A stretch of DNA of 32,000 bases. Source: Candidatus Heimdallarchaeota archaeon B3_Heim. GTDB lineage: Archaea; Asgardarchaeota; Heimdallarchaeia; Hodarchaeales; Hodarchaeaceae. Both the position numbers and the translations under genes were made by a program. Positions 8,130 through 15,550 of the stretch are shown here, piece by piece. The stretch lies in NCBI GenBank assembly GCA_003144275.1, contig NJBF01000002.1, positions 30,001-62,000 of the forward strand, given 5' to 3'. The notes beneath the pieces are model-generated. The model was not told the origin of the DNA and did not search any database. It was given only the letters and a program-made list of their open reading frames with translations. Numbering within the stretch: position 1 is the first letter of the stretch; each line of letters opens with the position of its first letter.

Positions 8130-9401
8130 ATGAAAGAAGACATAGAAAACCCTAAAAGATCCTCCTCGCGTGCTTGGTTTACTGGAAACGTGCTTCTTTT
8201 AGGTTTAGTATCTTTTTTTGCAGATCTTTCAGGAGAAATGATGACTCCCGTACTTCCTTTGTTTATTGCTGCGCTTGGAGGATCCAGTGTTGTCATTGGT
8301 TTCATTGGTGGATTAGGTGACGCAGTAGCAAACATTGTTAAGGTTTTTTCAGGTTATATAGCAGATAAAACTGGAAGAAGGAGGCAATTGATCGCTGTGG
8401 GGTATGGAATCCCTTTCTTCGCCAAACTTGGTATAGGACTTTCGAATGCATGGGAACAGGTGTTAGTACTAAAACCGACAGAAAGATTAGGAAAAGGAAT
8501 TCGGGGAGCACCACGTGATTCATTACTTGCTGATTCCATTTCGTTTGAAGAAAGAGGAAAAGCCTTCGGATTCCATCGTATGATGGATACTGCTGGGGCA
8601 ATTGTAGGATCATTATTAGCGTTAATTATCCTAATCATGTTTTATGGGATTCTAAATGATGAATTAGGAATTCTAAAACTGATTCTCATTATTTCGGCTT
8701 TTGTTTCTCTCGCAGCAGTTATTCCAATTTTCTTTCTCTCAGATCAGGAAGAGAAACAAATCACCGAGGAACGGAAGAAATCTAGTTTAGTTGATAATCT
8801 CAAAGGTTTACCAGGGAATTTTTACAAATTCCTAATCGTCTCAACTTTGTTTGGATTTGGTAATTTTACCATCTTATTATTCATCATTCATACTAAAACA
8901 ATTTTATTAGGTGCAGATCCTAATGCATCTGAGTTTGTCCAACTCGCATTCCCAATTGTTACTTTCATTTGGTTTAACATTATCTACACAATCCTCTCCA
9001 TACCGTTTGGATCTTGGTCAGATAAGTATGGTAGAAAAAATATTTTTGCGGTAGGTTTAGGTCTATTTATATTCACATGTTTAGGTTTTTCCCTGACGAC
9101 CGATCCAATTATTCTTTTCCTATTATTTGGTGTATATGGGGCTTTTAACGCAGCGACTGATGGAATTCAGAAGGCCTTTGCAGTAGATCTTCTCCCTGAG
9201 GATCTCAAAGGTACGGGGATTGGATTACTTCAGGCTTTAATGGGGTTTGCGAGTATTTTTGGAGGGCTTATCGCGGGTTATCTTTACGATTTTGAAAGCT
9301 CCTTTGCCTTTTTGTATGGTGGAATACTAGCAGGAATTACTTTACTAGTATTATTTGGAATGAATATTTCTATCACACGTCCAAACGATATTGATCAATG
9401 A
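8130..9401 (+). CDS. Major facilitator superfamily transporter
   Basis: About 12 TM segments; motif A in both halves (GYIADKTGRRR, GSWSDKYGRK); ERLGKGIRGAPRD. Confidence 0.92.
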   Translation: MKEDIENPKRSSSRAWFTGNVLLLGLVSFFADLSGEMMTPVLPLFIAALGGSSVVIGFIGGLGDAVANIVKVFSGYIADKTGRRRQLIAVGYGIPFFAKLGIGLSNAWEQVLVLKPTERLGKGIRGAPRDSLLADSISFEERGKAFGFHRMMDTAGAIVGSLLALIILIMFYGILNDELGILKLILIISAFVSLAAVIPIFFLSDQEEKQITEERKKSSLVDNLKGLPGNFYKFLIVSTLFGFGNFTILLFIIHTKTILLGADPNASEFVQLAFPIVTFIWFNIIYTILSIPFGSWSDKYGRKNIFAVGLGLFIFTCLGFSLTTDPIILFLLFGVYGAFNAATDGIQKAFAVDLLPEDLKGTGIGLLQALMGFASIFGGLIAGYLYDFESSFAFLYGGILAGITLLVLFGMNISITRPNDIDQ

Positions 9402-9431
9402 AAATAAAAAAAAGAGATGCTCCGACCGAGA

Positions 9432-9464
9432 GTTTCAAAGATAGAGTACAAAACTACTATCTCA
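9432..9464 (-). other. tRNA intron, ~33 nt, position 59/60 of tRNA-Glu
   Basis: Strict BHB: central TTCA/TGAA, bulges AAT and ACT, inner helix GAGATAG/CTATCTT, outer helix is the T-stem. Confidence 0.88.
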
Positions 9465-9485
9465 TTTGAACTCGGGTCGTAGGGG

Positions 9486-9517
9486 TTATCCTGATATCTC
9501 ATACAAGAAGATATCAT
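9486..9517 (-). other. tRNA intron, 32 nt, position 37/38 of tRNA-Glu
   Basis: Bulges CAA and AAC, inner helix TGATATCT/AGATATCA, central CTCT/GGAT with one mismatch. Confidence 0.88.
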
Positions 9518-9614
9518 TGAGAGCCCTAAATGATGGACCAAGCTACACTATCGGAGCAAGTGTTTTAATTTGATGTAGTGCTGGGGGGGGGGTTTGAACC
9601 CCCGACTTCGGGAT

Positions 9615-9676
9615 GTCCCATGTTAGCGCGTTTCAAATTAGCCCTTTGAAAGGTAATGTGAGAATCGCTCTCAGAT
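9615..9676 (-). other. tRNA intron, 62 nt, position 37/38 of tRNA-Met
   Basis: Central CTCA/TGGG, bulges TAA and ACA; two internal hairpins. Confidence 0.87.
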
Positions 9677-9700
9677 TATGAGTCCCGCGCTATACCAGGC

Positions 9701-9729
9701 CTCGCCGCAATAATCAGGTTTTTATTGCT
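9701..9729 (-). other. tRNA intron, 29 nt, position 14/15 of tRNA-Met
   Basis: Inner helix GCAATAA/TTATTGC, bulges TAA and AGG, central GGCT/GGCG (3 bp plus a mismatch); removal restores GCTTA|GCCTGGTATAGC. Confidence 0.82.
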
Positions 9730-9942
9730 TAAGCCACCCCAGCAAGGCGTTAATTATCATAAGCTATATTTATGTACCAACGCATCCGAATTTACCACCA
9801 GAACCTAGTAGATTAAAAGATTGCGTTTGATAAGTTTGGGAAGGTACTAGTAATTTTAAAAATTAACGTTGTAACGATGCTTTAGTTAGGACTAGTTCGT
9901 TTGCCCCGATGGTGTAGCTTGGTCTAGCATTGATGGCTGTCA

Positions 9943-9972
9943 AAGACTTGTCAAGTCTGACAGTCAGCAGAC
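9943..9972 (+). other. tRNA intron, 30 nt, position 37/38 of tRNA-Asp
   Basis: Central CTGT/GCAG, bulges CAA and ACC, internal hairpin GAC(T)TGTCA/TGACAGTC. Confidence 0.87.
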
Positions 9973-9993
9973 CCCATCCGACTCGGGTTCAAA

Positions 9994-10023
9994 AGGTACA
10001 AACTATTTGTTTATACTTGAAAA
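9994..10023 (+). other. tRNA intron, 30 nt, position 59/60 of tRNA-Asp
   Basis: Strict BHB: central TTCA/TGAA, bulges AAA and AAT, inner GGTA/TACT. Confidence 0.88.
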
Positions 10024-10049
10024 TCCCGATCGGGGCGCCAGTTCTTCAT

Positions 10050-10150
10050 GGGCGCATAGCTCAGCCAGGTAGAGCGACAGGCTTTTAGTGGTTGTTTATT
10101 ATTGACCAAAAGAAACCTGTTGGCCGGGGGTTCAACTCCCTCTGCGCCCG
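10050..10150 (+). tRNA. tRNA-Lys(TTT) with one canonical intron
   Basis: GGGCGCA/TGCGCCC acceptor; ACAGG-CTTTTAA-CCTGT anticodon arm after removing 10088-10114; starts 9 nt after tRNA-Asp. Confidence 0.94.
10088..10114 (+). other. tRNA intron, 27 nt, position 37/38 of tRNA-Lys
   Basis: Strict BHB: central CTTT/AAAG, bulges TAG and AAA, inner TGGT/ACCA. Confidence 0.9.
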
Positions 10151-10589
10151 TTACTTCTCTTTTTAGAATAACAAATAAAAAAAATACGAATTTTTCTTAC
10201 CACAATTTTTGGTATTATTTTTATCTAGAATAAATAAAAGACTTTTAACCAATATTCGAGGTTAGTAAAGTGAATATTTTGGTTTTTATAAAGTCATTGA
10301 CATACAATGACTAAAAACGTCAAATGAGTACTGTTTAACAACTGTGAGAACGAAGGGTTATATGTGAAAAGAAGGTTATAGAACAAAGTTGGTATTCTTC
10401 TATCCATAGAATCTTCACTCATTCTAATTTTTTGGAAAATCGTTACCCCATCCGTCTTTTGGATCGAATTCGATATTTGATGAAATTTATTATTGTGTTT
10501 GGGGAAAGAAAAGGAATTCTTCAGCATTTAAGCCTGGTATGCGCCCATATCACGTTTAATTCTCTTGAATTGACATTTTAGAGAATTTA

Positions 10590-15243: not shown

Positions 15244-15481
15244 ATTTTCAATATTATTAGGAGTCTCACCTTGTGTTCACTTTTAGATATTTATTTTTAC
15301 TCGAATAGTGGATAGATCTATTCTAAGAGTTCGAGTACATAATTTAGCCGCCATTGAGGCATTCTCTTAGATTTAATTGATCTTACACCAGAAAAATTTA
15401 AATCGTTTAGAAGTTTAAATTGAAACGAGGCAAATTCATTAGACAGTGAATTAAAAAAGGGACGTGGTCTAGATTGGTTTT

Positions 15482-15511
15482 AATCGTATTTTTATTAAAT
15501 ACGTTGACCAA
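15482..15511 (+). other. tRNA intron, ~30 nt, D-loop just before A21 of tRNA-Pro (boundaries +/-1)
   Basis: Central GGTT/GACC, bulges TTA and AAA, inner helix CGTATTT/AAATACG. Confidence 0.8.
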
Positions 15512-15550
15512 ATGATTCTTGGTTCGGGACCAAGAGGCCGGGGGTTCAAA

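Follow-up and report, generated by a model that had tools for sequence, protein, structure and literature searches.

A tRNA gene on the minus strand at 9579-9743 of the window (the whole 32,000-nucleotide stretch analysed here, contig C80:30001-62000 of the genome labelled G000, whose assembly comprises 3.95 Mb, is 36% GC and is 94% complete) raises the question of what 29 nucleotides are doing between positions 14 and 15 of its D-arm. From 9743 the minus strand reads GCTGGGG-TG-GCTT-A, and the gene ends at 9579 with GGGGG-TTCAAAC-CCCCC-CCCCAGC-A, comprising the T arm, a 3' acceptor strand that can pair with the gene's first seven bases, and the discriminator A. The reading favored here, with a probability of roughly 0.85, is that these 29 nucleotides constitute an archaeal tRNA intron of the protein-spliced kind, lying between A14 and G15 of an elongator-type tRNA-Met(CAU) and removed by way of a relaxed HBh' motif. 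The features on which the argument depends are as follows, with i1 to i29 denoting the nucleotides of intron 1.

9579-9743, minus strand: tRNA-Met(CAU) gene, apparently of elongator type, 165 nt, two introns, G1:C72, discriminator A, no encoded CCA.
9730-9743, minus strand: exon 1, tRNA positions 1-14 (GCTGGGGTGGCTTA), invariant in 17 congeners.
9701-9729, minus strand: predicted intron 1, 29 nt (AGCAATAAAAACCTGATTATTGCGGCGAG), at A14/G15; 29 nt in 13 congeners, none in G005, G004, G016, G001 and G022.
9722-9728, minus strand: 5' arm of the intron 1 inner helix h', i2-i8, GCAATAA, pairing with 9707-9713.
9707-9713, minus strand: 3' arm of the intron 1 inner helix h', i17-i23, TTATTGC, from covariation in a 13-species alignment.
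9704-9706, minus strand: i24-i26, GGC, the intron strand of the central helix H, pairing with U12, C11 and G10 (9732-9734).
9677-9700, minus strand: exon 2, positions 15-37 including 17a, carrying the D-arm's 3' half and the anticodon CAT, from in-silico splicing.
9615-9676, minus strand: intron 2, 62 nt, canonical 37/38, called by ARAGORN and read from the sequence itself.
9579-9614, minus strand: exon 3, positions 38-73, with the 3' anticodon stem, the variable loop with C48, the T arm, the 3' acceptor strand and A73.

When both introns are cut out in silico, ARAGORN recognizes the 75-nt product as a tRNA-Met(CAT) cloverleaf with U8, A14, G15:C48 and G18G19 in place, and when intron 1 alone is taken out, the program correctly calls a tRNA gene with an ordinary 37/38 intron. 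The motif of that second intron consists of a central helix between C32-A35 and UGGG, with the anticodon stem as its outer helix. ARAGORN overlooked the unspliced gene, and so did Rfam's tRNA model, even with E raised to 10. A sequence-only reading of this DNA had placed an insert at 14/15 of tRNA-Met, at 9701-9729, and had proposed that its excision restores A14-G15. The coordinates were right, as the restored cloverleaf and the intron-less alleles described below agree, and the spliced product does have A14 together with a G15 that matches C48.

The boundaries of the insert are set by comparison with relatives. BLAST searches with the gene against 40 related genomes returned orthologues from 17 congeners plus a single genome (G022) belonging to a neighboring family. 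Exon 1 is identical in all congeners with an orthologue, and the 37/38 intron is present in all congeners. A homologous insert of exactly 29 nt occupies the same site in 13 of the 17; it is missing from G005, G004, G016 and G001, and also from G022. At the corresponding junction these four congeners read GGCTTA/GCCTGG, the same as the predicted spliced product, and no other cut pair in the G000 sequence yields this string, so the boundary is fixed without reference to any splicing motif. An Rfam RF00005 search reported the intron-1-less gene of G005 as a full tRNA (50.6 bits, model positions 1-71) and did not report the insert-bearing genes of G000 and G006. These comparisons argue that 9701-9729 is a genuine intron, presumably absent from the mature tRNA.

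The insert also has a conserved fold. In the alignment of the 13 species, i2-i9 pair with i16-i23 in 94% of cells, and five of the eight aligned pairs have changed on both sides (A:U to G:C, for example). The observed covariation measures were reached by 0-1 of 500 shuffles, and pairing fell to 25-60% in a control in which the partner strand was slid by 1-3 columns. Like the boundaries and the intron-less alleles, this covariation is directly observed. The adjoining central helix comprises three pairs, U12.G, C11:G and G10:C, of which 12:i24 and 11:i25 are invariant and 10:i26 is G:C in 12 species and G.U in one; it shows no covariation, since the exon strand is invariant. A 5' bulge of three nucleotides, U13-A14/i1, with the cut after its second base, separates the central helix from the hairpin, and the 3' cut (A-G/G15) falls two bases past the fourth central position, as the two-fold geometry of the enzyme needs. 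Beyond the 3' cut nothing pairs.

The geometry of this structure determines its class. The sequence-only reading had described a bulge-helix-bulge (BHB) cut after the second base of each 3-nt bulge, with a central helix at positions 9-12. Its 5' half holds, as does pairing at positions 10-12, but the 3' "bulge" is open with no outer helix to close it, and G9 is unpaired with i27 (9703; G, A or U) in 11 of the 13 species, four central pairs occurring only in G007 and G017 (2 of 13). The mismatch at G9 and the unclosed 3' bulge led to rejection of the strict hBHBh' class; in the terms of Marck and Grosjean, the predicted structure is a relaxed HBh' motif. The earlier proposal that the D-stem must be unfolded in the precursor fits this structure, in which bases 10-12 would be engaged by the intron and a D-stem would be impossible before intron 1 is removed.

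Motif matches of this kind must be weighed with care, as the relaxed class is permissive, according to a published warning (bioRxiv 10.64898/2026.10.13.758758). Shuffled versions of the gene contain ~18 motifs each with at least three central pairs and an inner helix of at least 4 bp. When an inner helix of at least 7 bp is demanded, the real gene contains a single motif, exactly at the boundary after 14 nt and with a length of 29 nt, while shuffles contain 0.78 per sequence over ~13,000 windows. A self-splicing group I or II intron was rejected as well, since the catalytic core of such introns takes up hundreds of nucleotides and the insert is only 29 nt long; an Rfam search of 9400-10300 at E up to 10 found no group I or II intron family.

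Three other explanations of the insert were considered. The strongest of them, although very unlikely, is that the insert is retained, giving a mature tRNA with a 29-nt expansion of its D-loop. Asgard stretches of this kind often appear as enlarged D-loops in tRNAscan-SE output, and a recent preprint warns that D-arm insertions lacking a canonical motif need not all be introns (bioRxiv 10.64898/2026.10.13.758758). A retained insert would, however, part A14 from G15 and tie up G10-U12, leaving the tRNA with no D-stem, no U8-A14 pair and no G15-C48 pair. The conserved GGC complementary to positions 10-12 and the hairpin flush with the 3-nt bulge correspond to what an endonuclease needs rather than to what a tRNA needs, and congeners without the insert have identical exons.

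Slightly less probable still is splicing in a neighboring register, for example one base downstream to give A14-A15. Cuts placed one base later on both sides still leave a purine at position 15, and a second register passes the relaxed motif test, with 15 as its last exon base, a length of 27 nt, three central pairs and a 6-bp inner helix. This 27-nt register would yield GGCTTAAGGCCTGG, which has one base too many, whereas the intron-less G005, G004, G016 and G001 read GGCTTAGCCTGG, a string given only by the 14/15 cut pair, in which G15 matches C48 as a Levitt pair. That the locus is a decaying pseudogene and the insert the debris of an insertion event, as the failure of both ARAGORN and Rfam to find the gene might suggest, is the least credible of the three, given exons that are invariant across 17 species, two introns that change by compensatory or neutral substitutions, a cloverleaf that is intact once spliced, and the status of this gene as the only elongator-Met-like one found in the assembly. 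The sequence evidence thus favors a real and well-supported non-canonical intron with a relaxed motif at 14/15 of tRNA-Met.

Cleavage and ligation of such an intron in the cell, and any order of events, would presumably follow a route of this kind. In the precursor, intron 1 would form a hairpin of 7-8 bp (h'), and the GGC of its 3' segment would pair with G10-C11-U12 to give the 3-bp central helix H. U13-A14/A would then stand as the 3-nt bulge that receives the 5' cut, while A-G/G15 would be left unpaired for the 3' cut. An (alpha-beta)2-type EndA endonuclease with a crenarchaeal specificity loop would cut both sites, and RtcB would join A14 to G15. After joining, the D-stem (10-13 with 22-25) and the tertiary pairs U8-A14 and G15-C48 would form. 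The canonical 37/38 intron would be removed independently of the 14/15 intron.

The presence of the enzymes for this route is a direct observation. The G000 genome contains two EndA-family genes. The alpha subunit, of 182 aa, matches EndA alpha of A. pernix over its full length (3P1Z_B, E = 8.5e-43), and its specificity-loop residues are retained as Lys (K39 in place of APE K44, K41 in place of APE R46). The product of the other gene, 215 aa long, is an EndA-like protein that has diverged further, as would fit a structural beta subunit. RtcB is encoded as well (559.8 bits). With the cloverleaf restored, the bulge and helix geometry present and the enzymes encoded, intron 1 has the features looked for in an EndA/RtcB-spliced relaxed HBh' intron. 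Hirata et al. found that the crenarchaeal specificity loop lets EndA cut relaxed motifs in vitro, and the A. pernix enzyme removes a D-loop intron in vitro without other factors (PMC3241643); an (alpha-beta)2 EndA with this same loop (L1) has been described for Asgard archaea (PMC5829648). Judged from its gene content, the organism would be able to splice the tRNA-Met precursor with these enzymes, and the endonuclease would presumably act on a precursor in which the D-stem is replaced by an exon-intron helix.

The RtcB protein itself (C53:10989-12452) has an uneven distribution of similarity. It is 74-94% identical between G000 and three congeners (G013, G003, G010), but against the RtcB of the genus's other genomes identity drops to 48-49%, below the 58% seen with another family. 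These identities suggest two lineages, paralogues or transfer, and RtcB was discarded as a species marker since congeners are either 48% or 74-94% identical to the G000 protein.

The predicted minimum free energy (MFE) fold of the precursor does not contain the productive central helix. In this fold G9-U13 pair with i28, i29, G15, C16 and C17, so that 9701-9703 and 9698-9700 are involved with 9731-9735. Local energies, computed at 37 °C, a temperature that may differ from that at which the organism grows, are -13.0 kcal/mol for this competing helix, -7.9 kcal/mol for the HBh' conformer and -6.4 kcal/mol for the D-stem plus hairpin; the competing helix is thus predicted to be ~5 kcal/mol stabler than the splicing conformer. 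Of the alignment cells for this helix in the 13 species, 97% preserve the pairing, and four of its five pairs involve invariant bases. According to the model it would bury the 3' splice site, and so could not be a substrate for the 3' cut. The competing helix is recorded here as unexplained and not as a mechanism.

An insertion at this site had also been thought to force ordered splicing and refolding. The two splice motifs use disjoint nucleotides, the 37/38 motif drawing on positions 27-43 and intron 2 and the 14/15 motif on positions 10-14, intron 1 and G15. A structure containing both motifs together with the acceptor stem and the T arm is valid and, when all other bases are free to fold, comes to -54.4 kcal/mol, vs. 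-63.0 kcal/mol for the MFE fold. Both motifs can therefore form in one precursor, and no order is forced. Blockage of the D-stem before removal is true of any intron that lies in or beside a stem.

The nearest known counterparts are the hidden D-arm introns of the same phylum (Valentin-Alvarado et al., 2024, PMC11291895; Goswami et al., 2026, bioRxiv 10.64898/2026.10.13.758758). These sources present D-arm introns as the hidden class typical of Asgard tRNAs, frequent in occurrence and consistently overlooked by tRNAscan-SE. Like intron 1 of tRNA-Met, the introns described there are short (median ~22 nt), often have a relaxed BHB, are overlooked by standard tRNA finders, have been gained and lost repeatedly among close relatives, and usually stand beside a 37/38 intron. 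The accounts center on Atabeyarchaeia, Freyarchaeia and Jordiarchaeia, with fewer introns in several Heimdallarchaeia lineages; the 14/15 site and the tRNA-Met locus are not named in their running text, in which positions are left to figures and tables. Intron 1 contributes a case from Hodarchaeales to the pattern of D-arm introns that Asgard archaea have gained and lost repeatedly. It is a further example of a published phenomenon, and knowledge of how such introns splice is unchanged by it. What it offers is a tRNA intron missed by standard finders that can be demonstrated without a motif, its boundaries coming from an intron-less allele and its fold from covariation.

Biochemical precedent comes from D-loop introns in A. 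pernix pre-tRNA-Thr(UGU) (PMC3241643) and at 20b/21 in the pre-tRNA-Glu(UUC) from M. kandleri (PMC5829648), the latter of which is a relaxed HBh' intron beside a canonical one, as is intron 1 of tRNA-Met. In vitro, the (alpha-beta)2 EndA from A. pernix cleaved the two of them, and the specificity loop that lets this enzyme act on relaxed motifs is conserved in the G000 alpha subunit. Both introns lie at the 3' side of the D-loop, while the Met intron lies at the first D-loop nucleotide and, unlike them, uses D-stem bases 10-12 for its central helix. Nuclear tRNAs of C. merolae likewise have multiple introns per gene, D-stem and D-loop sites, and HBh' or hBH motifs (Soma et al., 2013, PMC3728597). 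Each motif folds independently there, yet ordered processing was observed, with 37/38 removed last (PMC3728597). C. merolae is a eukaryote with another endonuclease composition, and the order seen in it is an observation rather than a structural necessity.

The identity of the tRNA bears on how much the organism depends on this splicing. With G1:C72, the gene at 9579-9743 is not that of an initiator tRNA, which is found at C10:1249-1346 (A1:U72, GGG:CCC anticodon stem). A third CAU tRNA, on C50, is of the GGGCC... type with an anticodon arm ..GGCUCAUAACC.., a form characteristic of archaeal tRNA-Ile2; elongator Met is typically of the GCYGGGGUGGCU.../ACUCAUAAU type. We infer that the tRNA-Met(CAU) of 9579-9743 is the elongator. 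No close paralogue was found in the 94%-complete G000 assembly, and the organism therefore most likely depends on splicing of this gene. For annotation the consequence is practical: without recognition of intron 1, the genome seems devoid of an elongator tRNA-Met.

The 14/15 site had further been regarded as rare or undescribed. Within the lineage this does not stand, given the published Asgard D-arm introns and the recurrence of the site in tRNA-Thr(GGU) and tRNA-Lys(CUU). A frame-based census of G000 tRNA genes for 14/15 introns uncovered a tRNA-Thr(GGU) gene on the minus strand of C57:15316-15484, missed by ARAGORN, which has three introns, at 14/15 (29 nt), at 37/38 (32 nt) and in the T-loop (30 nt). 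A scan of 400 genomes of the phylum for the pattern GTGGCTTA-N20-40-GGCNNN-GCNNGGT gave 20 hits, vs. 3 for the reversed pattern used as control; 12 congeners with the Met intron, 5 genomes with the Thr intron (G000 and four congeners) and three further loci account for them. One of the three, a genuine tRNA-Lys(CUU) gene of another Asgard family (G282:C387, family f21), has a 30-nt 14/15 intron (agttagcaagttatacttgcaaacggcaac) together with 37/38 and T-loop introns. The other two, in G113 and G009 (the latter of 46 nt), are not tRNA genes and were discarded.

The Thr gene of G000 and the Lys gene of G282 resemble the Met gene in their 14/15 site, in a 5' exon ending in GTGGCTTA, and in an additional 37/38 intron. 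Their 14/15 introns, of 29 and 30 nt, share its layout of one unpaired base, a hairpin, GGC(N) and two bulge bases. Their hairpins are unrelated in sequence to that of the Met intron and so do not point to common descent of the three introns, and both genes have a T-loop intron that the G000 Met gene lacks. On this sequence evidence the supposed rarity of 14/15 is contradicted within Asgard archaea, the phylum to which the result applies. In reviews, the accessible text names archaeal intron positions such as 20/21, 22/23 and 25/26 "etc.", and positions are otherwise given in figures only.

Scans with wider scope were less informative. A restricted pattern run on 251 Thermoproteota genomes gave ~85 hits vs. 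~35 for controls, with all 12 of the 12 inspected hits coding-like, a weak negative since the pattern also misses the G000 Met and Thr genes. Hits from a scan of named genomes were set aside as plain tRNA genes, since the "RGCNNN" pattern also fits an ordinary "RGCTCA" D-arm with a chance TRGCTCA upstream. A hairpin-bearing hit in a Shapirobacteria MAG was likewise dismissed as tRNA debris in a bacterial tRNA cluster.

It is doubtful, though conceivable, that 14/15 is a preferred and repeatedly used landing or persistence site in Asgard tRNAs with the D-arm G9-G10-C11-U12-U13-A14, and that the competing helix is a switch that times 3' cleavage. If the preference were true, it would suggest site-specific intron gain, or copying between tRNA genes followed by divergence. 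The unrelated hairpins of Met, Thr(GGU) and Lys(CUU), with a near-fixed length of 29-30 nt and an ending of GGC(N) plus two nucleotides, would point to such gain or copying.

Intron 1 most likely lacks a function of its own; it seems to have been gained within this lineage and to persist since the cell can splice it out. The history of the Met intron can be followed in part among the congeners. The 13 introns at 14/15 are clearly homologous in their shared length, sequence and gradual change, and a single origin is therefore likely. In a SecY tree (a single gene, unrooted, with paralogues included), the intron-less G004 groups with G019 and the intron-bearing G010 (SH-aLRT 89-93), and the intron-less G005 and G001/G016 fall in an unresolved base with the intron-bearing G021. 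This placement hints at a history with one or more precise losses, or with multiple gains. As for SecY itself, the closed 4.9-Mb single-contig genome of G009 contains two full-length SecY genes, as do several other congeners, and a pair inside one closed genome means that the duplication is not just MAG contamination.

Eight congeners (G006, G011, G014, G012, G009, G007, G015 and G017) have a tRNA-Met gene of 220-221 nt with four introns, at 14/15, at a second D-arm site (~29 nt, after GGTATA), at 37/38 and in the T-loop (~30 nt). No fit to a symmetric BHB register was found for the second D-arm intron of these genes. The differing extra introns among relatives agree with published accounts of Asgard tRNA genes gaining and losing introns repeatedly.

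At 10050-10150 and 15463-15543 on the plus strand of the window, ARAGORN appears to mislabel two intron-bearing tRNA genes. At 10049-10151, the program with introns allowed reports a "tRNA-Stop(tta)", whereas Rfam scores a complete tRNA at 58.5 bits, in which 28 nt are inserted behind CUUUUA; this tRNA is probably Lys(UUU). The ARAGORN call of "tRNA-Ile(tat)" at 15463-15543 is likewise suspect.

A C/D-box guide within intron 2 (9615-9676) was considered and rejected, as it has no box C and no C/D box. This 62-nt intron is unusually well kept across the genus, with spanning BLAST matches ~76-83% identical, and it contains a conserved TCTGAGA...TCTCA hairpin and GGGC and CGCGC blocks, in a layout similar to that of the neighboring family (G022).
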